IMG/VR virus record: IMGVR_UViG_3300037511_000475
Reading direction: 5' to 3' (one strand)
DNA: 64,000 nucleotides
Source: a virus
Shown here: piece by piece, positions 8,432-52,060 of the stretch
How positions within the stretch are numbered: the first letter of the stretch is position 1
How the letters are laid out: every line of letters starts with the position of its first letter
Notes under the pieces: generated by a model
Told to the model about the DNA's origin: nothing
Database searches by the model: none
Seen by the model: only the letters and a program-made list of their open reading frames with translations
Made by a program: the position numbers and the translations under genes

Positions 8432-8590
8432 TTAGCCAGTGAGGCACTAGTCATCCCTACTTCTTTAATACACTTTTCATTACTACCCTCCCCCCCCTAT
8501 TATTTATTTTTTATTTTTAATCTCTATATTGAGGTGGGTAATGTAGAGGGTACTGAAGTAAAGCTAAATCAAGAGCTTCAGGGCTTCTAC
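8432..8590 (-). repeat. origin-like dispersed element, copy 1 (inverted, most diverged)
   Basis: Reverse complement CATTACCCAC...AAAATAAAAAATAAA...TAGGGGGGG... matches the cores at 43.8 and 51.9 kb; lies just past the primase-helicase stop. Confidence 0.65.
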
Positions 8591-8798
8591 CCAGACCCAA
8601 AAAGCCTACGAAAGGCCACACGAAAACCATAGGGCAATCGCCAGCCAACCCTTAAATGCAAAAATCAGCTAATTCTTCAATATCCGCGCAATGCAAAGAC
8701 TGAAGAATTAGCTGGTTTCTGGCTTGCTATCACAGCAAAACATGGCGATCGCTTTGTGTGGTGTGCGATCGCCCATGCAGCAGCTAAGGGGTTTACCC

Positions 8799-8817
8799 TG
8801 GCTTGATATTCAATACA
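8799..8817. promoter_or_regulatory. operator motif A, CAAGCC half-site variant
   Basis: TGGCTTG ATATT CAATACA. Confidence 0.65.
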
Positions 8818-8830
8818 GCTAAGACGTGCT

Positions 8831-11581
8831 TTAGAGCAGTCTTAGCTCTGTGATTGGATAGGAACCGTAAAAGGTATCACCTTCAATTGTTGCTGTTGTG
8901 CAGTTTACGGAAACTACAACGCCGGAACCCTTGGAGCACTGAACTTTATCACCTGGCTTGTATTTGAATACGGTATGACCATTGGAAGCAACGGGTACAA
9001 GCTCTTTTTGTTCAGTTTCTGGTGGTATTGGCGGCGGTTCTGGTGGTGCAATAGGGGCGATCGCTTCAGTTGTAAGTGATGAGGCAAAAGCTATGCCCTC
9101 AATGCCTTTGCGGTTGTTGCCAATTGATACCAGTTTTGCCCGTGGAAACAACTTGGATATACGGTTAAAAATTTGGTTAGCACCCTTAACGTAAGGATCC
9201 CCAGGTCTTACATCGTTATCCCATACCCGGTTGCCGTGAATGTCAATCTTGAGAATCGGGGTATCTCCAGCCTTGTAAAACTCTTCAAGCTTGTCCCACA
9301 GATCCTTGACAGGAATAACGTTGTTTTTGTCGGCAACAAGATTGTAGGTTTTGGAGAACTCAAACAGGTGACTGTTTACGGATTGGGCTTCCTCTAGTGC
9401 AGCATCGCAGCAACTATAATCAATCCCCTCTTCCATCAAGGCCCGGAATGCATCCATGATTTTGTTAAGGAATGCAGGAAGGATATTGACTTGAATGAAG
9501 TCCTTAGAGTACTTGAATCTCGGATCCGCTTCAATCTCTCCGAGTTCTGGATTTGCTCCAATCTTGAAAGTTTTCAGGAAAGAAACGATCGCGAATCTGG
9601 ATTTAATGGCCTCCATCCCAGCTTTAATATTGGGGGTGTGGTTGATATTAAAGATGTGTACCGCTTTTGGGGTGAATGGTTCCGGGTCAACGCCTTTGCG
9701 TTCTAAGTGAAGTTCATCGCCTGAGATTGCTTGCTTTAATGCCTCTGAAGAGTCGAGGTTGACATCCTTTTTGTTTTCACTAGACCAATTTATTCGACTA
9801 CCAGGCAAAGGTATTAAAGTAAATTTTCGCCCTCCGTCATAGCCTGCAAAGTCCTGCGTACCCAATGATGTCATTCCGGTTCTCCCCCACAAAAGAGAAA
9901 CTGTTTCCCTGAGTGAGTCTTTACCATTGCTTCCATCACCGTAAGCCAATAAAGCTTTGATCCGCCCGTGTCGCTCTCTAACCTTTTCAACGTCTAGTGC
10001 AGCGGCGATCGTCCTCAAAAATACTTGCTGTTGTGGCTTGTCCAGGGCAGACAACAGGCGATCGCAATCCTCAGCATAAGCATCTGGGTTGTACTCAACC
10101 AGCGGCTCATACAGGTAATACATATCAGGTGAGTGAGGAATGAAGTTGAAGATGGGTGTGCGATCGCTGTAGGAAATCTGCAATACCCCATTCTTGCAAT
10201 TCAGCCCAGGCGGGTTGCATTTGTCGATAGACACGGCATTTAAGACCTTTACCCAGTCAAGCGCCTGATTTACCTTTTGGCGGCTTGCGTAAGGATATGT
10301 CTTTTCATAAATTGGGTTGCCGTTCTCATCCTTTGCCCTTGTCTTTTTAATTACGCAGGTTTCATCAGCCAATTTAGCAATGCGCTTTTCCTCAACCTCA
10401 TCAGGGCAATACTCGTAATGAGTTCCAGTCCATCGGTATAACTTGCTAGTAACGGAAATGTATCTGGTATCAGAGTAAAGCTTTCGTGCTGTAATCTGCG
10501 GAAAATCTCGCTTTACATGCTTTTCATCTTCCTCTGATTCAACCTCTTTTACTGGCTCATCATAAATAGCCTTTGGTCGTGGTGCGATCGCCTCATACTC
10601 TGCCAACGTCAAAAACTTGATAGCTTCACCGTCCAATTCATCGCAGTCGGGGAAGTCTTTTGTCTCTTGTCCCCACCATGCAATTTTCACGTTGTAACCC
10701 ATGTGCCGAACCAGATCTAGTGTCTGGTAGTCACGGCGCAAAACCTTGTCATTATCGATCGCCCCTGCATCTGGGTAGAAGATTATTTCCTGGCTACCAA
10801 TCTCAGCCGACAGCTTTTCAAGCGTTGATGCCAGCAGCCTGGATGAAGCAGAGAAATTGCCGCCAGATGCACCCACAAACACGCACCCTAAGCCCTGTGC
10901 AGCAATCCATGGCTTAAGGATGCCTTCTGCCAGTGCGATCGCCTTCACCTTCCCCTTTAGAGGTCGAGCAACAGTAATAGGCAGTTCACCCATGATGTGA
11001 GGTGTAACCCCTTCCGGACTTTTCTTGGTGCGGCTCGTAAGCCAACGGTAACGGCCTGCATCACTAGGCTGATTCAGTCGTAACTGAATGCCAATAATCA
11101 ATCCGCTACTGTTAAACGCAGGGCACAGGTAGCCATCTGCCGGAATATTTAGATTACGGCCTCCCTTCAGCACCCCTGGTAGCCGTTCATCAAATTCAGC
11201 TTTCAACCCCTGCCATTGCTTGACGGAACGGAATAAGCCAGCCTCGATCTGTTCTTCGGTAAGCCCTCGATCAAGTAAATCGGCTTTGTCACGATCCAAA
11301 AGAGTTAATTCAGACAACATTTGCCGATGAAGGCGATCGCGCTCCGACGCAGACAGGGACGTATCATTCAACTCTAACTCTGACTGCCGCGGCGATCGCT
11401 CCGGTGCAAACATTCCCCAAACTCCATCAGAGGTGATTCCGTTAAAATGCCAGCCAGTAGGAGCATCCTTTTGGCTGAGGATTTCCATGCATAGCTGCCC
11501 TCGCTCCGTTGTGCGACACTTACCAGATTCGTTGTTGCAGATTGGGCAGGGGTGATACTTGCTAGAAGGTGTGAGTGGCAT
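8831..11581 (-). CDS. phage/plasmid primase-helicase (Zn ribbon, TOPRIM-like primase, D5-like SF3 helicase)
   Basis: HPCPICNNESGKC; ALAEGILKP/FYPD/DFPDCDE; Walker A GDGSNGKDS; INWSSEN; FNIN. Confidence 0.9.
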   Translation of the reverse strand: MPLTPSSKYHPCPICNNESGKCRTTERGQLCMEILSQKDAPTGWHFNGITSDGVWGMFAPERSPRQSELELNDTSLSASERDRLHRQMLSELTLLDRDKADLLDRGLTEEQIEAGLFRSVKQWQGLKAEFDERLPGVLKGGRNLNIPADGYLCPAFNSSGLIIGIQLRLNQPSDAGRYRWLTSRTKKSPEGVTPHIMGELPITVARPLKGKVKAIALAEGILKPWIAAQGLGCVFVGASGGNFSASSRLLASTLEKLSAEIGSQEIIFYPDAGAIDNDKVLRRDYQTLDLVRHMGYNVKIAWWGQETKDFPDCDELDGEAIKFLTLAEYEAIAPRPKAIYDEPVKEVESEEDEKHVKRDFPQITARKLYSDTRYISVTSKLYRWTGTHYEYCPDEVEEKRIAKLADETCVIKKTRAKDENGNPIYEKTYPYASRQKVNQALDWVKVLNAVSIDKCNPPGLNCKNGVLQISYSDRTPIFNFIPHSPDMYYLYEPLVEYNPDAYAEDCDRLLSALDKPQQQVFLRTIAAALDVEKVRERHGRIKALLAYGDGSNGKDSLRETVSLLWGRTGMTSLGTQDFAGYDGGRKFTLIPLPGSRINWSSENKKDVNLDSSEALKQAISGDELHLERKGVDPEPFTPKAVHIFNINHTPNIKAGMEAIKSRFAIVSFLKTFKIGANPELGEIEADPRFKYSKDFIQVNILPAFLNKIMDAFRALMEEGIDYSCCDAALEEAQSVNSHLFEFSKTYNLVADKNNVIPVKDLWDKLEEFYKAGDTPILKIDIHGNRVWDNDVRPGDPYVKGANQIFNRISKLFPRAKLVSIGNNRKGIEGIAFASSLTTEAIAPIAPPEPPPIPPETEQKELVPVASNGHTVFKYKPGDKVQCSKGSGVVVSVNCTTATIEGDTFYGSYPITELRLL

Positions 11582-11657
11582 ATATAATGCAGGTTAAGAA
11601 GGTTTTTCACTTGAATCCCCGGTGCTCCATCGCCGGGGATTTCGCTTTTCTGGGGGT

Positions 11658-11676
11658 TGGATTCTATTACAATACG
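11658..11676. promoter_or_regulatory. operator motif A
   Basis: TGGATTC TATTA CAATACG upstream of primase. Confidence 0.6.
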
Positions 11677-11678
11677 CT

Positions 11679-11825
11679 TTAGCCAACCTTTTGTAGATAC
11701 GCACCCACGATTTCTCGCACCACTGTAGTGTAGGTTCCGCCTTGTTGTCTGGCGATCGCTTCAATCTTGGCAACCTCTTCATTAGAGAACCTTACGCCTA
11801 CTACCTTTGTCTTTTTTGATGGCAT
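11679..11825 (-). CDS. ribbon-helix-helix (CopG/Arc-like) regulator, 48 aa, not in ORF track
   Basis: MPSKKTKVVGVRFSNEEVAKIEAIARQQGGTYTTVVREIVGAYLQKVG. Confidence 0.75.
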   Translation of the reverse strand: MPSKKTKVVGVRFSNEEVAKIEAIARQQGGTYTTVVREIVGAYLQKVG

Positions 11826-11876
11826 TTTTCAGACTCCAATCCTTCATAGTTAACACTCTTACCATGTTAACAATTC

Positions 11877-11895
11877 TGGCTTGAAATACAATACA
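11877..11895. promoter_or_regulatory. operator motif A, CAAGCC half-site variant
   Basis: TGGCTTG AAATA CAATACA; paired GTTAACA repeats at 11849-11872 lie between it and the RHH gene. Confidence 0.7.
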
Positions 11896-11896
11896 T

Positions 11897-12622
11897 TTAC
11901 TCTAAAATTTTGGGTTTTCCGATCGCCCAACCCTGACACAGATCGACATGGGTATAGTCGCGAACAAAATTGACTTGCCCCTGCTCAACCATCTCTAAAA
12001 TTACTTTAATTCCACGTGCGTGGGCAATAGCGCAGTAAGCGTTAATGTCTGCGATCGCCGCTGGATCTGGCAGCCGCTTCGTGTTCCACCCATCGACCTT
12101 GAGGTATTGAGGCTGCAATAGTTCCAAGCTGGCTACACTAAAACCGCCATCGGGTGCCCCGAAATCGTCTACAGCCAAAGGGCATCCTACGGCTCTGACA
12201 AAGCTTAGAACTGATTGAGCGATCGCCGTATTAGCAACCGCGCCTCTTTCGGTCACTTCAAAGATTAGAGGAATCTTATCTAATTTATAGAGTGCTTGTT
12301 GTGCCAACAAAAACTTTGAGAACTGCCCATTCATGTTGATCGTCGCAGGTGATAGGTTCACCGCATATTTATCCTGGGTGCCAGTGCGAGCCAAGTATGC
12401 CAGCGTAAGGGCTATTACATGGCGATCGAGAAAATGAATGAGACTGTGACCTTCCAGCCACTCAACAAAATGAAGGGGCGATCGCAGCACTCCATTTTCA
12501 CGGAATCGGCTAAGGATTTCGTAGTGAGAGATTTCGCCCGTGTGGATATTGGCGATCGGTTGCTGAAAAAGCACGATCGATTCGTTTAGGAGGAATTGAA
12601 TGTCTGGGGTAAAGGGCATCAC
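11897..12622 (-). CDS. stand-alone EAL-domain cyclic-dinucleotide phosphodiesterase
   Basis: FQQPI, YEILSR, AVNLS, IFEVTE, AVDDFG, LKVD, ILEMVE, CQGWAIGKP. Confidence 0.93.
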   Translation of the reverse strand: MMPFTPDIQFLLNESIVLFQQPIANIHTGEISHYEILSRFRENGVLRSPLHFVEWLEGHSLIHFLDRHVIALTLAYLARTGTQDKYAVNLSPATINMNGQFSKFLLAQQALYKLDKIPLIFEVTERGAVANTAIAQSVLSFVRAVGCPLAVDDFGAPDGGFSVASLELLQPQYLKVDGWNTKRLPDPAAIADINAYCAIAHARGIKVILEMVEQGQVNFVRDYTHVDLCQGWAIGKPKILE

Positions 12623-13191
12623 TGTTCTGTACTGGTGATGAGGCTAACGTAAGCGGTAACAGTGGCAGAAATCCAAAACTGATTAGTGCGTTGGCTGCTG
12701 TAGAGTAAAGCCTCACGCATCAATCGCTGGCTAATGAAGTCTAGCCCTTTCGTGTTGGACTGCATCCCGTTGGCGATCGCTACTAACCCTTCACAGATCA
12801 TCCGCAACAGTGTCGCTGTGTGCCTGCCAGGCACGGAAATATAAACCCCTTCATCCAGTAAAGGGATTTCTTTGCCTTTTGAAGTGAAAGCGGAAAATTT
12901 AATTACAAAATTCGGCGGCTGGTAGTAGAAGAGGGCATATATCGCTCTTTTACTTGGCTCACGTCTTTCGAGTCGTAGAACATCCGCAATGATTTGCTTA
13001 TTAAGGATTGTTGTGTCCTCAGAAGGTTCTCCCCTATGTAAGGGCAGCGCAACAATACGGTACTTAAACGGAAAACCTTGAATAAACCCATCAGCATAAT
13101 ACAAATACCCTTGTACTTTTCTAGCATGTAGACCGTATTCAATTTTGTGCCGTTTTTTTTGGCGGGGACACTGCCAAGGGAGCCATCGCAT
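12619..13191 (-). CDS. hypothetical protein coupled to the EAL gene
   Basis: 190-aa ORF; stop overlaps EAL start (ATGA). Confidence 0.7.
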   Translation of the reverse strand: MRWLPWQCPRQKKRHKIEYGLHARKVQGYLYYADGFIQGFPFKYRIVALPLHRGEPSEDTTILNKQIIADVLRLERREPSKRAIYALFYYQPPNFVIKFSAFTSKGKEIPLLDEGVYISVPGRHTATLLRMICEGLVAIANGMQSNTKGLDFISQRLMREALLYSSQRTNQFWISATVTAYVSLITSTEQ

Positions 13192-13193
13192 TA

Positions 13194-13508
13194 CTAATCC
13201 TCATTTTTTGCTTTATCCAAAACGTACTTAGCGATCGCACCCATAGCAGCACCAACACCGGATACCTGGAGAATCTGCACCAGGATTTCACCAGATAAAT
13301 CAAAACTCAGCCAGTCAGTTTGAATTCTCAGCCCAAAAGCCAAGACTAAAATCAAGCCCAGGAACGTAGCACCCGCAACGGTCACGCGGTCAATATCAAA
13401 AGCGTTTCGCCTGATTTTTCGCCAGAGGTCGCTAACAATTTGCTCCTGTTCATCCTGGCGAGATTCAATATTTCGCAAACGATCTTCAAAATCTTGCATT
13501 GTGCTCAC
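13194..13508 (-). CDS. coiled-coil plus two-TM membrane protein (holin-like)
   Basis: Charged N-terminal coil, then VTVAGATFLGLILVLAFGL and ILVQILQVSGVGAAMGAIAKYV, basic tail. Confidence 0.55.
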   Translation of the reverse strand: MSTMQDFEDRLRNIESRQDEQEQIVSDLWRKIRRNAFDIDRVTVAGATFLGLILVLAFGLRIQTDWLSFDLSGEILVQILQVSGVGAAMGAIAKYVLDKAKNED

Positions 13509-13563
13509 CGGGCTATCTTATTCAATTTTCGCTACGTCTCCCGGTATAAATTTATGCTTCAGG

Positions 13564-13575
13564 AAAAAGTCACGG
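13564..13575 (+). promoter_or_regulatory. candidate late-promoter motif B
   Basis: AAAAAGTCACGG upstream of tail fibre 1. Confidence 0.6.
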
Positions 13576-13636
13576 CATAAGCCGTATTTGGTTTAGATGG
13601 AGGGCGATCGCCCCTAAATTTGAGGATGAGGCTTTA

Positions 13637-16501
13637 TTGAGTTCTATGGCGATCGTTTCAGTTAGAACCAACATCAGAGACGGCTATCTATTGGTTTATC
13701 CAGAGGTGCCGTTTTTAGATGGTGAAACGATTGTTACCAAGGACAAGCTGAAGTTTAGAATCCGCAATTATGTCGCATCAGTTGAGGTTCCACTCTCGGT
13801 TGATGTTTTTTACAATTTCGAGATTTACAACTTAAAAGATGTGCTGGTGTGGTCAGGCCCAGCATTGATTGATAGCGCTGAAATCATCCTGGCTGATGCT
13901 GTTGATATTTCGCCTCCACCCGTCAATCCGTGGAGTGTGGCAGTTAATTTTTTGATCTCCAGACTGCCAGAATCTTCAGCGTTTCGATCGCTTTTAGTTG
14001 ATCTTTTGGGTGAGATAGGTGCAGGAACCAGTGATCATGGATCACTCACTGGATTGGAAGACGACGACCACCCGCAATATTTAACTGAATTTCGGGCGGA
14101 TCCTATTTATTGGCGAAAAGATGAGCTTATTTCAGAAGATGCGATAGATAGTGCGATCGCTCGTGACTCAGAGGTTAGTAGTGCGATCGCCGCTATCACC
14201 CCTGAATCAATTGGGGCATTGAGTATTGCTGACATTGGCGACACTGTGCAATGGTACAGCGATAATCTTGCTTCAGTGTCAGGACTGCATACGGATGGAT
14301 TCGTGACCCGTGACACCTTTGGGCTGTGGTCAACCATCCCCGTTGCCAATTTTCAGGTGGCTGATCCTGATTTGGCGGCGATCGCTGGCTTTTCTGAGAC
14401 TAGCGGAACCGGATACCTATTCCGAGATGGCATCAACAGTTACAGCCTGATTGATGCTGAATTTGCAACGGTAACCAATCTAAGTGACGCGATCGCGGGC
14501 ATCACCCTTGATTCATTGGGAGGCATCACTGAATCAGAGGGAGATGCCCGCTACCGCTTGCAATCTGTGGCGATCGACTACACCACGCTTACGAATCTCC
14601 CCACCCTTGGCACGGCTGCAAGCCAGAACACCTCAGCTTTTGCCACCGCTGCACAGGGAACAAAGGCTGATAGTGCATTACAGCCCTCAGCGATCGGCAC
14701 AACCATTACAGCATCCGCTCTTGGTGCCATCACTCAATCCGCAGCCGATGATCGCTATCGCTTGCAGTCAGTAGCAATCAGTTATCTTACCCTGACTAAT
14801 CTCCCTACCCTTGGCACAGCAGCCGCACAAAACACAGCAGCATTTGCTACAGCGGCACAGGGTACTCTTGCGGGAACTGCTTTACAGCCAGGGACAGCGA
14901 TCGCCAATATTTCAGGCTTACAAACTGCATTAGATGGCAAGCAGACCGCTTTTACTGTGCAAGCCGCCAACCGAGTATATGCAGGGCCAACGACAGGGGC
15001 GGATAGTTCTCCTAGTTTCCGGGCATTGGTCGCCGCTGATATTCCTGCGATCGCAATCTCTGGAGTCACAGGATTACAAACTTCTCTAGACGCTAAGGGT
15101 ACAGTTTCAAGCGTTGCACTGTCAGCACCTAACCTGTTTAGTGTTTCCGGATCTCCAATTACCGGATCCGGTACGCTGACACTAACTCTTGCCACTCAAC
15201 CCGCCAACAGAGTGTGGGCAGGCCCAACAACAGGCGCAGATGCTGCACCCACGTTTAGGACATTGGTTGCGGGCGATATCCCTGCGATCGCCATTAGCGG
15301 TGTAACAGGACTGCAAACGGCACTAGATGGCAAACAGGCAGCAACGACAGTACAGACTTTAGGCGATGCCAACGCCTCAATCAACTCTACTACCACGATC
15401 GCCCGCATCACCTCCACACTCACAGCAGCACGCACTTACACTTTGCCAGCGGCTAATGCGGTATCTGATGGGTGGGAAATTGAGCTGATTGACACCACAA
15501 GTTCAGTCGGTGTTAGCGGGTACACGGCAACCCTTGCGGCGACGGGTAGCGATACCATCAACGGCACGGCAACCATTGTCTTACGAATACCCAACGGAAA
15601 GATTCGGTTACGCTCAAACGGGAGTAATCGATGGGCGATCGTCTCCGCTCCCGATGTTTTCCATAGCCTAGTTACCAGTTCAACCACCTACACTCCCCCT
15701 GAGACTGCAACAGTCATCAAGTGGTACGGGTTGGGAGGTGGCTCCGCTGGTGGTGGCGGTAGTACAGGTGCGGCGGGAACCAACCGATCAGGTGGTGGCG
15801 CTGGTGCCCCTGGCGGCATGACCTACGGGGAATGGGCGATCGCTGAACTGCTAGCACTGTATGGAACTAAAGACTTGGTAGTAACCGTTGGCGTAGGCGG
15901 AACTCCAGGCGCGGCAGTAAGTGCCAACTCAACCAACGGCAACCCAGGCGGGGCAGGCGGAAATACTGTTATTTCTTGCGGTGGTGTTGTGATCGGCGTG
16001 GGCTTAGGGGCCAACGCTAGTACGGGTGGGCCAAGTGCGGGAACTCAATCAACGGCGATCCTTAACGTTGGTTCAGCGTTCCCTATGCCAACCTTAGCGA
16101 ACGGGACTAACGTAGCCGGCGGATCTGGGGCGATCGCTAACGGGTTTGGGGCTGCTGGCGGTGGCGGTGGCGGTGGCTTGGACACTGCAAATACAAACCG
16201 ATCGGGTGGCACGGGCGGCATAGGTGGTCGCACGTCCAAAAGCACCACAGGGGGTGCAAGTGGTACGGCTGGGGGCGGCAACGGCGGCAACGGCAACGCC
16301 CTTACGTCCAATCCCTACAACTGGGGTGATGGCGGCGGCGGTGGCGGCTCAAACAACGCTGGCAATGGCGGCAATGGTGGCAACGCTTCCGGGTATGGGA
16401 ATGGCGGTGGCGGCGGCGGTGCTTGTGTGAATGGTTTTACCGCTGGGCAGGGTGGCAACGGTGCCCAGGGTGCTGTCTTGTTTATTGCTTCTAGGGGCTA
16501 G
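13637..16501 (+). CDS. tail fibre-like virion protein with internal repeats and Gly-rich C-terminal domain
   Basis: Repeated LGTAA...FATAAQG and AGPTTGAD.P.FR.LVA.DIP modules; GGGGGG-rich C-terminus. Confidence 0.8.
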   Translation: MSSMAIVSVRTNIRDGYLLVYPEVPFLDGETIVTKDKLKFRIRNYVASVEVPLSVDVFYNFEIYNLKDVLVWSGPALIDSAEIILADAVDISPPPVNPWSVAVNFLISRLPESSAFRSLLVDLLGEIGAGTSDHGSLTGLEDDDHPQYLTEFRADPIYWRKDELISEDAIDSAIARDSEVSSAIAAITPESIGALSIADIGDTVQWYSDNLASVSGLHTDGFVTRDTFGLWSTIPVANFQVADPDLAAIAGFSETSGTGYLFRDGINSYSLIDAEFATVTNLSDAIAGITLDSLGGITESEGDARYRLQSVAIDYTTLTNLPTLGTAASQNTSAFATAAQGTKADSALQPSAIGTTITASALGAITQSAADDRYRLQSVAISYLTLTNLPTLGTAAAQNTAAFATAAQGTLAGTALQPGTAIANISGLQTALDGKQTAFTVQAANRVYAGPTTGADSSPSFRALVAADIPAIAISGVTGLQTSLDAKGTVSSVALSAPNLFSVSGSPITGSGTLTLTLATQPANRVWAGPTTGADAAPTFRTLVAGDIPAIAISGVTGLQTALDGKQAATTVQTLGDANASINSTTTIARITSTLTAARTYTLPAANAVSDGWEIELIDTTSSVGVSGYTATLAATGSDTINGTATIVLRIPNGKIRLRSNGSNRWAIVSAPDVFHSLVTSSTTYTPPETATVIKWYGLGGGSAGGGGSTGAAGTNRSGGGAGAPGGMTYGEWAIAELLALYGTKDLVVTVGVGGTPGAAVSANSTNGNPGGAGGNTVISCGGVVIGVGLGANASTGGPSAGTQSTAILNVGSAFPMPTLANGTNVAGGSGAIANGFGAAGGGGGGGLDTANTNRSGGTGGIGGRTSKSTTGGASGTAGGGNGGNGNALTSNPYNWGDGGGGGGSNNAGNGGNGGNASGYGNGGGGGGACVNGFTAGQGGNGAQGAVLFIASRG

Positions 16502-43622: not shown

Positions 43623-43655
43623 GCCAAAATAGAAATTCAACTCGCAAGACCTTTG

Positions 43656-43687
43656 GCCCCTGGGTAAAAATCCAGGGGTTTTCTTTT
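43656..43687 (+). terminator. intrinsic terminator
   Basis: CCCCTGG-GTAAAAAT-CCAGGGG-TTTTCTTTT. Confidence 0.8.
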
Positions 43688-43694
43688 GCCCGTG

Positions 43695-43994
43695 AAACTG
43701 ACTAACAAAAAGTTAGGCGAACATCTGTACACTAACCCTCTGACTAACGCACCTCAAACCCTTATTACTCCGTTCTTCTTACTCTCTCTTATTAGTCACA
43801 TTACCCATATAGTCAGTTAGATATAAAAATAAAAAAGTAAATATAGGGGGGGTAGTAGAAATAGAAATAATATATATAGGTATAGGGGCGATCTGCCTAA
43901 CTGACTAACTTAATCGGCTGAAACCTTTGCCCTGTATGGGCGGAGTCACTTTGTTACCCTGTCGTTTGTAGCCTAATCTGGGTTAGGCAGTTTT
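43695..43994 (+). repeat. origin-like dispersed element, copy 2
   Basis: Aligns by eye with 51694-52060; repeated TGACTAA/TTAGTCA, A-tract, G-tract. Confidence 0.85.
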
Positions 43995-44050
43995 TGGGAT
44001 TGATGGAAAATTGAGAAATGAGTGAGGGCGATCGGGTGGGTTAGAATTGG

Positions 44051-44299: not shown

Positions 44300-44339
44300 C
44301 AGGGGCGCGATAAGTTTTTGCGATCGCCCCTAGTCCTTC

Positions 44340-44358
44340 CGTATTGCTTATCAATACG
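44340..44358. promoter_or_regulatory. operator motif A (perfect, C-G outer pair)
   Basis: CGTATTG CTTAT CAATACG. Confidence 0.8.
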
Positions 44359-44428
44359 ACAAAGGGCTATGATTGTGGAGGCCGACATCGACGGTTCATG
44401 GCTGCTACTTTTAAATGGATTGACCTAA

Positions 44429-44457
44429 AGCTACGTGTTAGCGCACGTGGCTTTTTT
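44429..44457 (+). terminator. intrinsic terminator
   Basis: AGCTACGTG-TTAGCG-CACGTGGCT-TTTTT. Confidence 0.75.
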
Positions 44458-44505
44458 ATTGGGTGCGATCGCCCTCCGCCTCGACCCTGGGCTAAGATTG
44501 AAACG

Positions 44506-44524
44506 TGTATTGAATTGCAAGCCA
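44506..44524. promoter_or_regulatory. operator motif A, CAAGCC half-site variant
   Basis: TGTATTG AATTG CAAGCCA, 1 nt before gpI ATG. Confidence 0.7.
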
Positions 44525-44525
44525 G

Positions 44526-45125
44526 ATGATCACGGTTTACCTTGAAGGTGTTTTAGCCGAACAATTTACGCCTGCGATCGCCCTCGATGTCACATGCGTG
44601 GCTGAAGCGGTGCAGGGCTTGTCTGCCAACTTCCCAAGCTTTAGACGGCAAATAGGGGAGATGTTAGCGCGTGGCATCCGCTTTGTTGTGAGGGTTGGCA
44701 GCAAAGAAATTGGTGAGGAGTTTTTGAGAAGTCCGATCGCCTCTAAAGTGCGATCGATCAGGATTATCCCCGTCCCTGCTGGCTACGGCTCCAACGGTGG
44801 TGCATTCGCTCAGATTGCGATCGGGGTTGGTCTAATTGCCCTATCACTCACGGGCGTTGGTATTTTGGGCGTGGCACCAGCAACCCTGGCTCTGATGGGG
44901 GGTGTAATGGTTGCAAGAGGCATCATGAGCCTGATCTTTGGGCAGGTGAAAGACCCGGCATCACAGGAGGATGAAGGAGGGCGATCGCTCATCTGGGGGC
45001 AACCACAGCAAACCATCAAGGAGGGAGGGCGAATGCCCAGGCTTTACGGGCGGCATAAGGTAGGGCACTACATCATTTCGGGTGCGATAAGAACTTATTT
45101 TGTTGAGGATGACGACGATGATTAA
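44526..45125 (+). CDS. tail assembly protein I (lambda gpI-like)
   Basis: ITVYLEG.LAEQF, EAVQGL, IRIIPVPAG, hydrophobic segment, EGGRMPRLYG. Confidence 0.9.
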   Translation: MITVYLEGVLAEQFTPAIALDVTCVAEAVQGLSANFPSFRRQIGEMLARGIRFVVRVGSKEIGEEFLRSPIASKVRSIRIIPVPAGYGSNGGAFAQIAIGVGLIALSLTGVGILGVAPATLALMGGVMVARGIMSLIFGQVKDPASQEDEGGRSLIWGQPQQTIKEGGRMPRLYGRHKVGHYIISGAIRTYFVEDDDDD

Positions 45126-45143
45126 TGTGGAGGGCGATCGGAC

Positions 45144-45365
45144 ATGAGAACAGAAGATGCCGTAAGAGGATTTAAGGCTGCACTTGCAGTTGACCAGCAG
45201 GCGATCGCACCCAAATATTCAGATAGCCTTTTTCAGTTGTGCTGGATGGCAATCATTGCAGCCGTGATTGGATGGCTACGAAAAACCAGAACCTATAAAT
45301 ATTTCAGGTTAGTAGAAGATGAAGCGGTTATTAATTGGGTCTTAGGGGAGAGCGATCGCTCATGA
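45144..45365 (+). CDS. small membrane protein inserted between gpI and gpJ
   Basis: 73-aa ORF with one hydrophobic segment. Confidence 0.45.
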   Translation: MRTEDAVRGFKAALAVDQQAIAPKYSDSLFQLCWMAIIAAVIGWLRKTRTYKYFRLVEDEAVINWVLGESDRS

Positions 45366-47656
45366 CCCGCAAACGCCCCACACCAAAAGGCTTCGGAGCC
45401 AAGAAACCAAAACAACCCGTTACCGATGAGGTATCGGGTATCAGTTCTGCCTTTGCCGAATTTATTGGGGCGATATCCTCTGGGCCAATCGAAGGACTGG
45501 TGAACGGCGCACAGTCTATCTACCTGGATGACACACCAGCACAGGATCCAGATGGCACCTACAACTTCTCAGAATTCAAATGGTGGTTTCGCCCTGGCAC
45601 TCAGAACCAGGCATTAATTAGAGGCATCACCCAGGGTGTCTTCTCTGAAACGCCCGTTGGGGCAGAAGTGCGTTACCTGTTTCCCGTATCACGCACCATC
45701 ACAAATCCCAACCTCGATTCAATCCGCATTACCTTAAGCGTAGTCTTGCAGGAAGCTGAAGACGATGGCGATGTCAAGGAAAACGATGTCAGCTATGAAA
45801 TCCGGATCCGACAGGGCGCAGGGGCTCTTGTCCTGCGAGAATCACGCACGATTAAAGGCCGTTATCCCACCCAAACAAACTTCGAGGTTCAATTCCCGGT
45901 TAATAACCTGGGCGGAACCGTTGAGGAGTTCGAGGTTGAGATAACGCGCACTACCGATGATGACGATGATGATCTTCAGAATCAGCGGATCCTGCGTTGG
46001 GAAAGCTATACAGAGTGCATTGATGACAAATTCAACTACCCTCACACTGCGCTGATGGCTGTCAGGGTAGACAGAGAGCAATTTGATAATATTCCCCAGT
46101 TCTCTTATGAAATGTATGGGGTAAGGAATTGCAGAATTCCCACCAATGCAACCGTGAATATGAGCGATCGCGGCCTCGATTACTCTGGCACTTGGGACGG
46201 TACTTTCAAATCTGCAGGCTATGCCATCAGCGATCCAGCATGGCAGCTATTCGATCTTCTCACTCACCCAGAAGAAGGGTTAGGGCAAGAGATCAAAATC
46301 TCAGATCTGAATAAGTGGCACTATTACGCACTCTCAAAGTACTGCAACGAATTAGTTAATGACGGCAAAGGAGGACTAGAACGGCGTTTTTCCAGCAATA
46401 TCTATCTAACCGATCGCAAAGACGCCAACGAGGTTATTGAAGGTTTCCGCTCAATCTTTAATGGCTTCACCTACTACCTAAATGGGGTGATCAACTTAGG
46501 CACAGATATGCCACGTGACCCTATCCGGCAGTTTGTGCCAGCAGATGTTGAGAACGGCGAATTCAGGTACACACGACCTGGATTGCGATCGCTTAAAACA
46601 GAGGCGATCGTTACCTACATCGACCCGGAAACCTGGGAACGAGATACGGTTACAGTCAGACTGCCAGCACAATACCGCCAAAAGTATGGTGAAGGTTCAC
46701 CACTAGAAATGAGTGCGTTTGCCTGCACCTCTCAAGGGCAAGCACGCCGCGCAGGACTGGCAGCACTAATCGGCAACATCGAAGGAAAGATTGTTACCTT
46801 CAAAAGCCGGATGCATGGCGTGATCTGTGTTCCAGGCGACCTGATTGATATTTACGATTACGAAACCTCCCAATACACGGGAGGCGGGTTAATCAAGGAA
46901 GCAACCGCTGGAGAGGTGACACTCGATCGCGCTGTCAGAATACGCGCTGGCTTTACCTATCTACTCTCTGTAATGATGCCAGACGGCACAAGACAGGAGA
47001 GGGCGATCGCCAACCTACCAGGCGATCACACCGTCCTAACTCTACCCATCGACTTCACCGAAGCACCAGAACCGGAAGCAAGCTGGATTCTAGCTTCTGC
47101 GTCGTTGCAGCGATCGCTCTGGACAGTCTTAGACGTGATCAGCGTCCCAGAATCTAACAACACCCTCTACGAGATTAATGCCCTCTACCACAACCCAGAC
47201 AAGTTCGATTTAATTGAAAACGGACAGATTCTACCAGCCCCACGGGTGAGGAATCGACCGTCTCAAACGGTAAGCTTGCCCAGGAATGTGAGGGCGATCG
47301 CCCGTGTTCGTTACAACACCGAAACAGGAATCACAGGTGTTGACTTAGATTGCCGTTGGGATGCACCACTAAGAGCCGATGGCACCCGTGATCCGTTTAT
47401 CAGTTCCTACTTTTTTGAATATCGAGTGTTTGCTAATGGGGTATGGGTCAACAGGCAAACCCTAAAAACCAGAAATATTGTTCTGAGTCCTGCACCCAGG
47501 GGGAATGTCTATATACGGGTAGCGGCGATCGACATCAATGGCAGGGTTTCTAAATGGGTGCGATCGGCTGCCGTCGGCACTAGCTTTGTGTCAGGGGAGC
47601 AACCCAACTATGCAGCTACAGCCAACGAATTTACAACTTTGTTCTTTACGGATTAA
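45362..47656 (+). CDS. tail tip / host specificity protein J (lambda gpJ-like, short)
   Basis: ISSGPIEGLVNG, SIYLDDTP, FRPGTQNQ, YPHTAL, SDPAWQLFDLLT, GDLIDIYD; FN3-like C-terminus. Confidence 0.92.
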   Translation: MTRKRPTPKGFGAKKPKQPVTDEVSGISSAFAEFIGAISSGPIEGLVNGAQSIYLDDTPAQDPDGTYNFSEFKWWFRPGTQNQALIRGITQGVFSETPVGAEVRYLFPVSRTITNPNLDSIRITLSVVLQEAEDDGDVKENDVSYEIRIRQGAGALVLRESRTIKGRYPTQTNFEVQFPVNNLGGTVEEFEVEITRTTDDDDDDLQNQRILRWESYTECIDDKFNYPHTALMAVRVDREQFDNIPQFSYEMYGVRNCRIPTNATVNMSDRGLDYSGTWDGTFKSAGYAISDPAWQLFDLLTHPEEGLGQEIKISDLNKWHYYALSKYCNELVNDGKGGLERRFSSNIYLTDRKDANEVIEGFRSIFNGFTYYLNGVINLGTDMPRDPIRQFVPADVENGEFRYTRPGLRSLKTEAIVTYIDPETWERDTVTVRLPAQYRQKYGEGSPLEMSAFACTSQGQARRAGLAALIGNIEGKIVTFKSRMHGVICVPGDLIDIYDYETSQYTGGGLIKEATAGEVTLDRAVRIRAGFTYLLSVMMPDGTRQERAIANLPGDHTVLTLPIDFTEAPEPEASWILASASLQRSLWTVLDVISVPESNNTLYEINALYHNPDKFDLIENGQILPAPRVRNRPSQTVSLPRNVRAIARVRYNTETGITGVDLDCRWDAPLRADGTRDPFISSYFFEYRVFANGVWVNRQTLKTRNIVLSPAPRGNVYIRVAAIDINGRVSKWVRSAAVGTSFVSGEQPNYAATANEFTTLFFTD

Positions 47657-47659
47657 CTT

Positions 47660-48178
47660 ATGAGTTCTATCGCTTATAGAGACGGATTAGGTAATACTCG
47701 CTATCGCGACACTTATTCTGGTGCAGGTACCGAGCTTAGCCCCGACGTGATGACATCGCACGATCCGGTGCTGGGTGAAACTTCCGATAGTGCTGCTGCC
47801 TCGCCTGGTTCTACCGCGAGTGCGATCGCCCTCCTAAAAGGCTTATGGTCTGACTGGCAGACCTCCGACACAACGGCATCTGCTACCTTGCTCAACGCGG
47901 TTACAGCCACGGGTGCAGGCAGTAGCACAACCGCAACCAGATATGGAAGTTTTGCCTTTTACTTCACAGCTACTTCTGTAACTTCAGGTGGTACCGTGGC
48001 GATCGAAGTAGAAGCCCCTGATGGCACCTGGCACGAAATCCACAGAGAAGTGATTGCGGCGAATACGGCAACAACGGCGATCGCACCCTTTACCATCTCA
48101 GCCCCATTTAGAGCAGTGAGAGGGAATGTGGTTAGCAGGACTGATGGAACATTTACCTTGGGTATGACGGCGAGATAG
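47660..48178 (+). CDS. hypothetical, probably virion-associated Ser/Thr/Ala-rich protein
   Basis: Follows gpJ in the same operon. Confidence 0.65.
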   Translation: MSSIAYRDGLGNTRYRDTYSGAGTELSPDVMTSHDPVLGETSDSAAASPGSTASAIALLKGLWSDWQTSDTTASATLLNAVTATGAGSSTTATRYGSFAFYFTATSVTSGGTVAIEVEAPDGTWHEIHREVIAANTATTAIAPFTISAPFRAVRGNVVSRTDGTFTLGMTAR

Positions 48179-48189
48179 GGCGATCGCTT

Positions 48190-48380
48190 TTAAGGGTTCT
48201 CCTGTTGCTTTTTGCGCTTGCGGTACTCTTTGGCTTTTTCGGCTTTGTATTTTTTGCGCTCTTCGCTTGACTCAAAGTTTGTGCGCTCTTTCCAGGCTTT
48301 TTGCTTGTTATAGTCATCTGGCTTAGTTTTGGGTCTGCCACGTTTGCGCTTAGGCTGTTCATCCATTTGTGCTACCCTCA
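48190..48380 (-). CDS. small basic protein with AT-hook-like KRKRGRPK
   Basis: MRVAQMDEQPKRKRGRPKTKPD... Confidence 0.55.
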
Positions 48381-48434
48381 TAGGAAAACCCCGCTTCTCG
48401 TGTGTCTTTACTTGAGACGCGGGGTTCTTTATAT

Positions 48435-48695
48435 TTAGCAGGCAGTCAGTTTTTTGCGACAATCTTTACAGGACGCTCGGTAAGAACCAATTGCCAAAGC
48501 GATTCCGAGTTTGTCGGCATCGCGCTTGTCAATGGAGATGCCACCGCGATCGGGATGTGCAACAACCCCGCGCCGTGCAAAAAAATCAACCATGAAATTG
48601 TTGTACCCCAAAAAGTTGACGCGATCGCCGTAAACGTCAATTACAACTTCAATCTTTCCGTATGCTTTGTACTCTTGACGAATTTTGTTAATCAT
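48435..48695 (-). CDS. hypothetical protein
   Basis: MINKIRQEY... from ATG 48695. Confidence 0.55.
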   Translation of the reverse strand: MINKIRQEYKAYGKIEVVIDVYGDRVNFLGYNNFMVDFFARRGVVAHPDRGGISIDKRDADKLGIALAIGSYRASCKDCRKKLTAC

Positions 48696-48746
48696 TGGGG
48701 TGTTCTCGTGTGTCGTTAAATCTATTATGGCGTAGACACTACCTAA

Positions 48747-49004
48747 ATGACGAGAGGTTCCAGGAAATATCTTGAAATCATGAAACAACTATCCTTAAAC
48801 CTTGACTCAGCAATGCCTACAGGTGATGACGGGTGGCCTCATAAAGACGGAAGATGGATTATGCGCTCTTATTGCGCAAAGCCTGGATACGCCCCCGGAG
48901 AATGGCCTCATTTAACTTTTAAGAGCGCAGTCAAGAGAGCGCTAATCCTACTCAATGAATCTCCGGCGTTTTACTCATCCATTGAGGTTTACTACAAGGA
49001 ATAA
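48747..49004 (+). CDS. hypothetical protein
   Basis: 85-aa ORF. Confidence 0.5.
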   Translation: MTRGSRKYLEIMKQLSLNLDSAMPTGDDGWPHKDGRWIMRSYCAKPGYAPGEWPHLTFKSAVKRALILLNESPAFYSSIEVYYKE

Positions 49005-49173
49005 CAAGCTATGGGAAAGCCACCAAAAACACTTTTTGAATTCCGCTGGGCGATGTCGCAGGGATACTATCTTGGATGGAGCCGATTGGATGGATGGCAC
49101 CTATACCCTTCGCCGTTGCTGTTAATGCAATGGATTGAGTTGTGCGAGATAGGCTGAAGCTGCCACTTTTTAT

Positions 49174-49192
49174 TGGCATGTATTTCAATACA
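49174..49192. promoter_or_regulatory. operator motif A variant
   Basis: TGGCATG TATTT CAATACA upstream of terS. Confidence 0.6.
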
Positions 49193-49255
49193 GGCTAGAA
49201 TAGAGGCGATCGCCACTCTACCAGGGGCTTTTGAGGGCGATCGTTTTTTGTATGT

Positions 49256-49777
49256 ATGCCTTTAACTCCTAAGAAAAAGCGTTTCTGTGAAGAATACTGC
49301 GTAGACAGCAACGGAACGCAGGCTGCTATTCGTGCTGGCTATAGCGTCCGAAGTGCAGGACAGATGGCAGAACAACTCTTGAAAAAACATGAAATTCAGG
49401 AGTGCATCGCAACATTACGCAAAGAATCAACAGCCAGGGTGAATGTCACTATCGATCGCGTTGTAGAAGAGTATGCCGCGATCGCCTTTGCTAACACAAT
49501 GAAAGCTGTTGAGGTGAAGGCAGGAAAGTTGCTGGTGAAAGACCCAACAACGTTGCCTGAACAGTTGCAGAGGGCGATCGCATCTATCTCTCCGGTTCAA
49601 ACAAAAGATGGCGTGTTCTTTAAGTTGACATTTTTTGATAAGGTGCGTGCGCTGGATTCCCTGGGCAAGTATTTGGGGATGTTCAGCGAGTTCAATGGGG
49701 CGATCGCTACCCTCAAAACCTACGGCATTCATCTGCGGCAAACGGATGAAGGTTGGGTTGTGAGTGATAAAGAGTAG
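49256..49777 (+). CDS. terS: terminase small subunit
   Basis: LTPKKKRFCEEY..DSNGTQAAIRAGYS, DKVRALDSLGKYLGMF (Terminase_2 pattern). Confidence 0.9.
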   Translation: MPLTPKKKRFCEEYCVDSNGTQAAIRAGYSVRSAGQMAEQLLKKHEIQECIATLRKESTARVNVTIDRVVEEYAAIAFANTMKAVEVKAGKLLVKDPTTLPEQLQRAIASISPVQTKDGVFFKLTFFDKVRALDSLGKYLGMFSEFNGAIATLKTYGIHLRQTDEGWVVSDKE

Positions 49778-49796
49778 TTTTTCCTAATAGAAACCT

Positions 49797-50378
49797 ATGG
49801 CATTAGTTGATTATCAGATCCGGCGGCTTTGCCTTGAGAATGATTTGGTTGTGCCGTTCCTCCCAGAAATGCTAAACCCAGCATCAATCGACGTTCGGAT
49901 TGGGCAGTTTATCAAGGTAGAGCATCAAGGTAGTTGGGGCGATCGCCTATCTCGTTTTCTGTTTCGGTTTAAGCCGTTGCGTCGATGGGTAAAGTTTAAG
50001 CCAGTTCAATTTGTTGATGTAGACCTTTCAGGGTACACAGCCGAAAATCCTTACTACATCAAACCAAAAGAATTTTTCCTAGCCTCTACGATTGAGGTTT
50101 TCAATATTCCGGATACCCTCACGGTTACCTTTTGCCTAAAGTCTTCCAGGGGAAGGGAAGGCTTTAATAATGTGTTGGCAGGCTTTGGAGATCCAGGATG
50201 GCAAGACTCAGTTTTAACGCTTGAACTAATTAATGAACTGCGTTTTAACTGGCTCCCAATTTATCCAGGATTGCGGATTGGTCAGATGATTTTTGAAAAC
50301 TGTGATGCGCCCGAGAAAAGCTATTCGGTCACTGGCAGATACAACGGCGATCGCACCGTCCAATCAAGCAGGGGATGA
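49797..50378 (+). CDS. dcd: dCTP deaminase
   Basis: NPASIDVRIG, KSSRGREG, DPGW, LTLELIN, RIGQMIF, GRYNGD. Confidence 0.9.
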   Translation: MALVDYQIRRLCLENDLVVPFLPEMLNPASIDVRIGQFIKVEHQGSWGDRLSRFLFRFKPLRRWVKFKPVQFVDVDLSGYTAENPYYIKPKEFFLASTIEVFNIPDTLTVTFCLKSSRGREGFNNVLAGFGDPGWQDSVLTLELINELRFNWLPIYPGLRIGQMIFENCDAPEKSYSVTGRYNGDRTVQSSRG

Positions 50379-50575
50379 GCATGATCACTGTTGCTGTTTG
50401 CGGCCTTGGGCTTGATATTTCCCCACCCGGGATACAGATTTATTTAGGCGATTACTGGATAGACATCGAAGTTTTCAGGCGTGGCGGATTCTCGATAACA
50501 CCACATTACAAGTTCGAGCCTATATGGCGATCGCTGATTATTGCAGATGATAATTTTGGAATCCCCAGGAACTAG
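50375..50575 (+). CDS. hypothetical protein
   Basis: 66-aa ORF overlapping dcd stop. Confidence 0.45.
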   Translation: MSMITVAVCGLGLDISPPGIQIYLGDYWIDIEVFRRGGFSITPHYKFEPIWRSLIIADDNFGIPRN

Positions 50576-50881
50576 GTTGAATATGTGGATATTTGCAGCG
50601 ATCGCCCTAGCAGCAATTATTGCGGTGTTAATCCTGGAAATTATTTTCTAGAATAGGTTTGCACCGTAGGTTTTCCCTGTCACTATTGGCAGGGATTTTT
50701 ATTAGGAATACAATAAAAGAGCAAACGTTTCACGGTAGTTTGCGCGGCAAGAAATTTCAAAATCCTCTGTCCTTCGCAGAGGATTTTTTATTACTTAAAA
50801 AAGCGATCGCAATGTTATGTGCGATCGCCTTTATTGTGTTATTAGCTGATTCTGGGTTGTGAACCTGAATGTCCTTCAAGT

Positions 50882-51109
50882 CTAGATCACGTCACACCGT
50901 TGCGATCGCCGTACCACCAACGTTTCTATCAATCCATCCGCTACCCGCTCCGGTGTTGCCCCTGCTGGAACCTCAGCCACGAGCAAACAGTATTTATCTT
51001 CACCGGGGCTGTCTGCTGTTATGGGTTGTGCAGATGCCCAGACCGTAGTGCGATCGCCTTCCGTCTTTGCAGCCAGGTAATATGGCGGCTTCTCCCACGT
51101 TTTCATCAT
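50882..51109 (-). CDS. hypothetical protein
   Basis: 75-aa ORF at end of the nblA-like operon. Confidence 0.55.
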   Translation of the reverse strand: MMKTWEKPPYYLAAKTEGDRTTVWASAQPITADSPGEDKYCLLVAEVPAGATPERVADGLIETLVVRRSQRCDVI

Positions 51110-51234
51110 TGGTCACTCTCCTGCTCATCCTGGATGCTATCTATTGCCCCTACAGTACGCCCTAGCATACAGATGAGGGAAAGGACGGCGATCGCCCCTA
51201 CTACGCCTACAGCGGCAACGAACAGCCAAATCAT
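51106..51234 (-). CDS. small single-TM peptide (42 aa, not in ORF track)
   Basis: MIWLFVAAVGVVGAIAVLSLICMLGRTVGAIDSIQDEQESDQ; ATGA overlaps on both sides. Confidence 0.6.
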   Translation of the reverse strand: MIWLFVAAVGVVGAIAVLSLICMLGRTVGAIDSIQDEQESDQ

Positions 51235-51425
51235 AAGACACTGCTGCCAGGATTCATCTTCCGTAAACATGCCCTGGTTGCAAAATTCAAGTCTACAGCG
51301 GCGATCGCCAACTCCCTCAACTTCTCAATATCGCTGGCAGCCTTAATCTCATTCACAATCTGCTGACGGTGTAGAGCCATCTCAAGTGGTAAATCAGAGG
51401 CCAAAACATTCAGGGGTGTGTCCAT
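51231..51425 (-). CDS. NblA-like phycobilisome degradation adaptor
   Basis: 64 aa; LPLE resembles the NblA L(S/T)LE start; helix-loop-helix hydrophobic pattern matches NblA as recalled. Confidence 0.55.
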   Translation of the reverse strand: MDTPLNVLASDLPLEMALHRQQIVNEIKAASDIEKLRELAIAAVDLNFATRACLRKMNPGSSVL

Positions 51426-51451
51426 TTTTTCTTGCCTAGAAGCTTTTGTTT

Positions 51452-51470
51452 AGTATTGCATATCAATACA
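51452..51470. promoter_or_regulatory. operator motif A
   Basis: AGTATTG CATAT CAATACA upstream of nblA-like gene. Confidence 0.75.
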
Positions 51471-51693
51471 GCGATCGCCCACATCGAAGAATTAGGTGAT
51501 TCCTGGTTTTGCAACAAAAAGCCCCTGCTAAATGGCAAGGGCGGGAATTTTCTGGTTGTTGTCGGTTTACCCCTTCAGCACAACCGAGGGCGATCGCCCA
51601 CCACATCACAGGCACCCCTCCCCCCCCCTATCAATTGCTGTTTAGGGGGGGGTACCCGTTTTTGCGCCTCCTTTTTCAATTTCTCAACCAGGG

Positions 51694-52060
51694 GTGAAAA
51701 CTGACTAACCCTTGAGGTAAACGGGCGATCGCCCTACCCCGTATAGCTTTCAGCCGATTTCCTTGTGCCCTCCCAAAAAGGCAAACACTTGTACCCTAAT
51801 AAACTGACTCAGGGCGTGAAACCCTTATTATTCCGTCTTTCCTCTTTTCTTTATTAGTCACATTACCCACTTAGTCATATAGATAAGAAAATAAAAAATT
51901 AAATGTAGATAGGGGGGGGATAGAAAGTAGAAATATATATATAAGGTATAGGGCTGATCTGCCTAAGTGACTAACTTAAGAGGCTGAAACCCTTGTCCTG
52001 TATGGACGGAGTCACTTCATTACCCTGTCGAACGTAGACTAATTTGGGTTAGGCAGTTTT
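51694..52060 (+). repeat. origin-like dispersed element, copy 3
   Basis: AAACCCTTATTA..TTATTAGTCACATTACCCA..ATAAAAAA..TAGGGGGGG..ATCTGCCTAA.TGACTAACTTAA..GGAGTCACTT..TTAGGCAGTTTT shared with copy 2. Confidence 0.85.

Follow-up and report, generated by a model that had tools for sequence, protein, structure and literature searches.

Three dispersed noncoding elements in a 64-kb stretch of viral DNA (IMG/VR record IMGVR_UViG_3300037511_000475; the window, below, means this whole stretch) are probably paralogous copies of an iteron-type origin module belonging to the phage's own primase-helicase. The ancestral layout is best preserved in copies 2 and 3, whereas the ancestral position, beside the primase-helicase gene, is held by the degenerate copy 1. 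An earlier interpretation made from the letters alone, called here the sequence-only reading, had proposed three origin-like elements in the manner of phage P4, and the comparison with relatives reported below supports that proposal well, through the iteron arrays of related genes and a winged-helix tail of P4 type on the primase-helicase. The window, from a soil metagenome, is a cyanobacterial phage with 48.6% G+C, 220 copies of the cyanobacterial HIP1 octamer GCGATCGC, and genes for a large terminase, a Mu-type portal, a ClpP-type prohead protease and lambda-like tail proteins L, K, I and J. The gene catalogue records a contig of 79 kb, of which about 15 kb lies beyond the window.

Three copies of one module

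Copies 2 and 3 can be aligned over their whole length, with 84 to 86% identity in ungapped blocks and an extra insertion of about 60 bp near the left end of copy 3 (51716-51775). A hidden Markov model (HMM) built from these two copies only found copy 1 on the minus strand (8581-8409, E=6.4e-11) and no further match in the window. The end-to-end alignment and the HMM match together confirm what had been claimed from the letters, namely three dispersed copies of which the first is inverted and more diverged. The shared architecture then described is also present in all three: the word ACATTACCCA (43798-43807 in copy 2, 51860-51869 in copy 3 and, as its reverse complement, 8535-8544 in copy 1), an A5TA6 tract, a run of seven or eight G (G7 at 43846-43852 in copy 2, G8 at 51912-51919 in copy 3, read as C8 at 8490-8497 in copy 1) and an AT-rich stretch. 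Three of the five runs of at least seven G or C in the window belong to these copies. The repeat is not an assembly artifact, because a Logan contig from the same sequencing run holds copies 2 and 3 together on one 12.4-kb record.

The TGACTAA/TTAGTCA repeats, which the earlier description placed mainly in copies 2 and 3, are indeed concentrated there (8 of the 11 TGACTAA sites in the window) and are very few in copy 1. When the third base is allowed to vary (TGVCTAA), copies 2 and 3 have six perfect sites each, compared with a largest cluster of 4 (mean, 2.0) in 200 shuffles. Copy 1 has one perfect heptamer (TTAGCCA at 8432) and two one-mismatch neighbors (TGAGGCA at 8440 and CTAGTCA at 8447), the three heptamer-like sites standing 7 to 8 bp apart.

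In copies 2 and 3 an AT-rich center is flanked by iterons in opposite orientations, no fewer than two on each side (Table 1). The inner heptamers point away from each other across a core of 76 to 82 bp, and the right-hand pair forms a doublet with 8-bp spacing. Outer heptamers lie beyond the inner sets, so placed that both ends of each element are inverted heptamers, and a second repeated word, CTGAAACCYTT, follows a heptamer by 6 to 8 bp twice per copy. When all 80-bp segments of the window were ranked by AT content, the core of copy 3, which includes its G8 run, and the core of copy 2 came first and second (0.762, against a window mean of 0.513 and a standard deviation of 0.06), and copy 1 fifth. 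In the alignment of copies 2 and 3, identity reaches 92% in heptamer columns compared with 77% in the other columns (Fisher p=0.011), which is mild support because the sites were partly picked by their conservation.

Table 1. Positions of the repeat copies, their parts, neighboring features and related boxes
Feature	Position	Strand	Remarks
Copy 1, diverged core	8409..8581	-	Adjoins primase-helicase gene; HMM match, shared motifs
Copy 2, full origin-like module	43683..43995	+	Alignment, HMM, heptamer cluster
Copy 3, full origin-like module	51694..52065	+	Alignment, HMM, heptamer cluster
Copy 2 perfect TGVCTAA heptamers	43699(+), 43741(+), 43792(-), 43894(+), 43902(+), 43983(-)		Inner order: 43792-, 43811- (one mismatch), core, 43894+, 43902+
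Copy 2 one-mismatch heptamers	43811(-), 43971(+)
Copy 3 heptamers	51702(+), 51854(-), 51871(-), 51960(+), 51968(+), 52049(-)		Inner order: 51854-, 51871-, core, 51960+, 51968+
Copy 2 AT-rich core	~43809-43880		Holds A5TA6 and G7
Box, copy 2	43918		CTGAAACCTTT; match to GGCTGAAACCCTT at 43917-43929
Box, copy 3	51983		GCTGAAACCCTT; match to GGCTGAAACCCTT at 51982-51994
CAGCTAA, four sites	8666+, 8708-, 8781+, 8816+		8666..8822, between primase stop and copy 1 core
Box-like TAAACCCCTT	8786-8795		Between primase stop and copy 1 core
Primase-helicase, 916 aa	8831..11581	-	D5_N + DUF5906 superfamily 3 helicase (Pfam)
Winged-helix domain of primase-helicase	9074..9379	-	About residues 735-836; AlphaFold2 model, structural search
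Terminator-like hairpin beside copy 1	8401-8426	+
gpK-like gene, NlpC/P60	42843-43622		Left of copy 2
Terminator-like hairpin left of copy 2	43655-43680	+	Ends gpK transcription unit
Small open reading frame, 82 aa	44051-44299	+	No family match
Strong terminator-like hairpin	44427-44454	+	After small open reading frame
gpI-like tail assembly gene	44526-45125		Right of copy 2; phrog_32, E=7e-35
Terminator-like hairpin beside copy 3	52101-52076	-
Bro-N (anti-repressor-like) protein	52134..52886	-	Stop 70 bp from copy 3
Box GGCTGAAACCCTT in relatives	L002 4013-4026; L007 7420-7433; L010 12413, ~13615; L048 2435

The locus beside the primase-helicase gene keeps a two-sided layout with mixed, weak words, because CAGCTAA sites stand on one side of the copy 1 core and the heptamer-like sites on the other. 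The CAGCTAA cluster at 8666-8822 may be the other half of a gene-adjacent origin; the word WWAGCCAG showed no local cluster. An operator-like word, GTATTGAAT-NN-CAAGCCAG, occurs at 8800-8820 (minus strand), right after the primase stop and aimed into copy 1, and again at 44505-44527 (plus strand), right before gpI. It is a variant of the palindrome TGTATTG-N5-CAATACA. Read as a promoter into copy 1, it would suggest transcriptional activation or priming of a copy 1 origin. We had considered CAAGCCAG after the primase stop as kin of the relatives' iteron word and rejected it, since it belongs instead to this operator-like word.

Iteron arrays in relatives

Related primase-helicase genes provide the strongest guide to what these copies might be. 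Directly after the gene, the two nearest homologues (P0002 and P0003, 42 to 43% identical) have a gene-free block of about 0.9 to 1.2 kb. At locus L002, 15 of the 17 CTGGCTAA octamers of the contig fall within 600 bp from the stop codon, in both orientations and around an AT-rich center. The block after the primase-helicase stop at loci L002 to L006, whose proteins are 42 to 43% identical to that of the window, is matched by the HMM of copies 2 and 3 (E=6e-8 to 3e-5), and copy 2 alone matches L002 to L004 at about 1e-4; copy 3 alone gave no match to the relatives' arrays. The octamer CTGGCTAA is one base apart from the window word CTGACTAA, at a position that also varies within the window (A, C or G), and the window copies have two further features in common with the L002-type arrays, namely a doublet with 8-bp spacing next to the core and the box GGCTGAAACCCTT.

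A homologue of the helicase plus C-terminal part was present in 22 of 401 sampled cyanobacterial genomes. At 19 of 21 loci, the 670 bp surrounding the point where the domain-coding part ends contain 5 to 13 copies of one 8-mer; gene-internal control stretches had no such array at any of the 21 loci and no 8-mer above three copies. The array copies mostly form two opposed sets, with a word that differs by lineage, and in three whole genomes the paired iteron words were found only at the primase-helicase locus. Given these 19 loci and the single locus in whole genomes, one array right after, or sometimes inside, the 3' end of the gene is the family norm. By sequence, copies 2 and 3 are recognizable members of this class of element, displaced from the gene.

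Other patterns emerged among the relatives. With at most one mismatch, the box GGCTGAAACCCTT also occurs in or near arrays whose iterons are entirely different (Table 1), and its other occurrences in two whole cyanobacterial genomes fall within genes and are no more frequent than chance would give. Either the primase part or a host factor may use this box as a conserved site. Scanning metagenome and genome contigs with the iteron-plus-box pattern returned isolated chance-like matches only, and one of these, L018, had no array on inspection. Five loci (L032, L033, L035, L039 and L040) carry a second array of 7 to 9 copies of TGTAGACA or GCTAGACA, located 0.5 to 0.9 kb beyond the first, downstream of the lineage-specific iteron array. 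At L007, from Gloeocapsopsis, opposed sets of GTGAAGCAA lie inside the primase-helicase open reading frame (7294-7573), after the winged-helix part, and L028 has its iteron sets at the same place; iterons within the L007 frame resemble the lambda ori in gene O and SPP1 oriL in gene 38. One contig (C177 of genome G326) holds two identical primase-helicase loci with arrays, L035 and L049, 7 kb apart.

The presumed initiator

The primase-helicase is the presumed initiator of this phage. Pfam recognized its superfamily 3 (SF3) helicase and named no primase domain; we infer a primase part only from its N-terminal third, which resembles CyRepA1-family plasmid Rep proteins. When solved structures were searched with phmmer, the only match at E<0.001 was the primase-helicase of Staphylococcus aureus pathogenicity island (SaPI) 5 (7ola, E=4e-4), covering the helicase core only.

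Residues 700 to 916 were modeled with AlphaFold2 from an alignment of 21 homologues, giving a mean predicted local distance difference test score of 74, with the winged-helix domain mostly above 90. A structural search of 48,161 solved chains ranked RFX5 first (Z 8.2) and RFX1 second (Z 7.9), followed by the origin-binding domain of phage P4, 1ka8 (Z 5.9, root mean square deviation 2.7, 76 residues), with the next match at Z 4.3. Foldseek likewise ranked RFX5 first. Both RFX (1dp7) and P4 alpha (1ka8) have been aligned to the winged-helix domain of another primase-SF3 helicase initiator (PMC2777425). On the strength of the modeled fold, this domain is presumed to be the origin-binding domain, and an SF3 helicase with a C-terminal winged-helix domain is the composition of a SaPI-type initiator.

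A model for the three modules

We infer binding, melting, firing and a role for each copy along the following lines. The winged-helix domain of the SF3 primase-helicase would recognize the heptamers (TGVCTAA and variants), which in two opposed sets would flank an easily melted AT-rich core. Hexamers loaded at both flanks would open the core and prime synthesis, in the manner of SaPI Rep/PriRep and P4 alpha. At least one copy should be a working origin, and the extra copies could be either additional origins or auxiliary sites bound by the initiator. Such auxiliary sites could act as a fork barrier for a theta-to-concatemer switch, like SPP1 oriR, as an enhancer in cis, like P4 crr, or in copy control by handcuffing.

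Several observations weigh against this model. The canonical position is occupied only by copy 1, whose heptamer set is the poorest of the three and whose locus, taken alone, does not match the arrays of relatives. Iterons in the window are fewer and less uniform than those of the relatives, as the top exact 8-mer reaches at most three per copy versus 5 to 13. E-values for the homology are modest, and the sequences involved are AT-rich and repetitive. The G7-8 run and ACATTACCCA are without counterpart in the relatives and are not explained by an origin. The winged-helix match is at the level of fold only, with Z scores of 5.9 to 8.2 of a kind that can come from a common arrangement, and GC skew shows no switch separable from gene orientation.

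Alternative explanations

All three copies lie at transcription-unit boundaries, between terminators, and the terminator that had been predicted beside each copy is borne out by terminator-like hairpins flanking all three (Table 1). Just left of copy 3, at 51620-51652, a further hairpin of C9 and G8 arms is followed by a T-run, and its left arm, CCCCTCCCCCCCCCTAT, repeats the C-run of the core plus TAT as in copy 1. The gene ending next to copy 3 encodes a Bro-N protein whose C-terminal 88 residues (52140-52403) are a paralogue of the primase winged-helix domain (35% identity, E=2e-14). Such a neighbor, the match of Bro-N proteins to anti-repressor families and the boundary positions would all fit a role for the copies as regulatory clusters, with the heptamers as operators through which the Bro-N/winged-helix protein or another regulator controls or insulates transcription. 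We consider this unlikely. Homologous arrays in relatives are tied to the primase-helicase gene and not to a Bro gene, no convincing promoter was seen inside the copies, two of the three copies stand between convergent genes with no obvious target to regulate, and a search for other proteins of similar size with a Bro-linked winged-helix domain found none.

The same protein offers a variation on the origin model itself. As a speculation, it might compete for heptamer sites. We also regard as doubtful, if worth stating, an arrangement in which the primase-helicase acts at copy 1 (CAGCTAA/TGGCTAA) and the Bro-N/winged-helix fusion holds the TGACTAA modules of copies 2 and 3, switching origin choice or stalling forks for concatemers, with GGCTGAAACCCTT as a possible primase recognition or start site. 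If true, this would mean that an anti-repressor-like protein has been recruited to replication control.

Phage genomes are mosaics, relatives need one array per genome, and copy 1 is clearly degenerate, all of which would suit a phage with one working origin whose other copies are decaying recombination duplicates lacking present function. That explanation seems quite unlikely in view of the conservation described above, as copies 2 and 3, though about 20% diverged elsewhere, have lost none of the six heptamer positions, nor the box or the core, and the same core motifs are kept in all three copies.

One copy had been reported to interrupt the tail operon, and copy 2 does lie between the gpK-like and gpI-like genes, with a gpJ-like gene also to its right. 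Together with a small open reading frame and a terminator hairpin, it fills a 903-bp gap between gpK and gpI. By analogy with SPP1 oriR, copy 2 with this frame and its terminators looks like a moron-like module. The break in a normally contiguous operon, and the imperfect 12-nt inverted repeat at the ends of copies 2 and 3 (AAACTGACTAAC ... GTTAGGCAGTTT), could also point to a small mobile element inserted at three places, either an origin-bearing hitchhiker or one resembling miniature inverted-repeat transposable elements, and the sequence-only reading had suggested a non-autonomous element spread by the primase-helicase. This suggestion did not survive well and is very unlikely. The flanks of copies 2 and 3 have no target-site duplication, copy 1 is without both ends, and the terminal "repeats" are merely the heptamer word, so that the combination of terminal inverted repeats, target duplication and many copies typical of these elements was not found. 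Neither did further copies turn up in phage, plasmid or viral-contig collections, whether by blastn in its distant mode with copy 2 against phage and plasmid records or by a scan of viral contigs for the core pattern. Among contigs assembled from what is probably the source sample, none joins across copy 2 by skipping it, and the gpK relatives examined are prophage remnants without a gpI neighbor. The phage itself has no near relative in these collections: 24 kb of the window gave no megablast match to phage records, and its nearest protein relatives are 41% identical for gpK and 43% for the primase-helicase.

At its end (43971-43988) copy 2 has a hairpin and then a T-run, which copy 3 retains almost unchanged, as would be expected if each copy encoded a small noncoding RNA between an AT-rich promoter and a terminator hairpin. 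Such RNA genes are very unlikely here. No Rfam family was matched at gathering score in the whole window or at E<=1 in copies 2 and 3; the predicted RNA folds of these two copies differ, with weak z-scores (-0.9 to -2.2), and the core RNA folds worse than shuffled sequence (z +1.2 to +1.7). The 3' hairpins of copies 2 and 3 differ by a single substitution, which hits a degenerate heptamer position, breaks a pair and is thus uncompensated. Copy 2 has no sigma-70-like promoter, and copy 1 lacks the 3' part. When the flanks of all three copies were compared in six frames, no common coding remnant emerged other than the winged-helix paralogue, and neither a transcribed RNA nor a degraded coding remnant, two of the outcomes that the sequence-only reading had named as refuting it, is favored. 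Partition sites dispersed over a phage-plasmid genome would be in keeping with the fact that no integrase was seen in the window and with the dispersed repeat clusters of N15, where sopC sites are of this kind, but are very unlikely when no ParA/ParB-type gene was found among the window proteins scanned (about 15 kb of the contig lying outside the window) and the relatives' arrays are linked to a replication gene.

Comparison with known systems

The interpretation of copies 1 to 3 as origin modules draws on systems that share some of their features and depart from others. Origins of SaPIs consist of 6 to 12 penta- or hexamer iterons right downstream of rep, with at least two iterons per side in opposite directions around an AT-rich center, and the C-terminal winged-helix domain of the initiator recognizes the iterons (PMC9371898). 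These and other phage-inducible chromosomal islands use self-loading helicases, either Rep (SaPI1 Rep1) or the fused PriRep (SaPI5 PriRep5, 7ola). The likeness to the window protein lies in an SF3 helicase fused to a primase and in a winged-helix end, and copies 2 and 3 are like SaPI origins in their short iterons, two opposed sets and AT-rich center; in the relatives, the origin likewise stands right after the gene. Unlike SaPIs, which have one origin, the window has three modules with degenerate heptamers. Where a SaPI has its origin once, right after rep, the window has only the degenerate copy 1, with copy 2 lying 35 kb and copy 3 43 kb from the gene. Similarity between the window protein and PriRep5 is weak (E=4e-4, helicase core), and the N-terminal part is of CyRepA type.

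P4 has one origin plus an auxiliary region, crr, that is required in cis, so that one iteron is found in at least two clusters set apart on the genome; the details of ori and crr are reportedly those of Flensburg and Calendar in 1987 and Ziegelin et al. in 1993/1995. The window resembles P4 in combining a putative primase part, SF3 helicase and winged-helix domain in one polypeptide and in separating its iteron clusters, with the six TGVCTAA sites of copy 2 and the six of copy 3 lying 8 kb apart. It differs in having three look-alike modules, each with its own AT-rich core, and no sequence similarity between the window and P4 was detectable. P1 and F keep spare iteron sets for copy control. 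The domain order in P4 alpha is primase, SF3 helicase and winged-helix origin-binding domain (PMC2777425).

SPP1 offers a parallel in the placement of its origins. Its oriL lies in the initiator gene, and oriR belongs to a segment with morons that breaks the conserved order of the late morphogenesis genes; according to a published proposal, initiator bound there halts the fork and so sets off the switch to concatemers (PMC6316719). Like the window modules, the two SPP1 origins are separated by kilobases and are alike in structure, each combining repeats with an AT-rich unwinding element; an equivalent pair is seen in copy 1 beside the primase-helicase and copy 2 between gpK and gpI. The oriR segment, bracketed by transcription signals and accompanied by morons, compares with copy 2 and its terminators and small open reading frame. 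SPP1 differs in having two copies and not three and in depending on a separate origin-binding protein, gp38, a loader and a DnaB-type helicase, in place of which the initiator candidate of the window is the SF3 primase-helicase.

The N-terminal third of the window protein is similar to proteins named as CyRepA1 family. The cyanobacterial plasmid replication proteins CyRepA1 and CyRepA2 likewise combine a primase-like part with a helicase but have a DEXDc part in contrast to the SF3 (D5_N/DUF5906) helicase and winged-helix tail. For pSYSA, priming has been placed upstream of the gene and is transcript dependent, and the word "iteron" does not appear in the main text of either of the two CyRepA papers (PMC9978351, PMC10079941). 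As these papers describe no iteron origin, origins of cyanophages and of this Rep family of plasmids and integrated elements look largely uncharted. The comparison presented here gives a simple rule, that an array is to be sought directly behind the part of the primase-helicase gene that encodes the winged helix, and yields about twenty lineage-specific iteron words with a potential use in cyanobacterial vectors.

The layout of spare origins is already known from other phages, and the class as such is represented by SaPI, P4 and SPP1, so the gain is incremental and not fundamental. What is unusual here is the combination of three modules, of which two lie at a distance from the gene and one divides the tail operon, with a gene-adjacent module that is degenerate and a second protein carrying the presumed origin-binding domain. 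Because it departs from the rule of its own family, the window phage is a natural case for asking why some phages keep spare origins.

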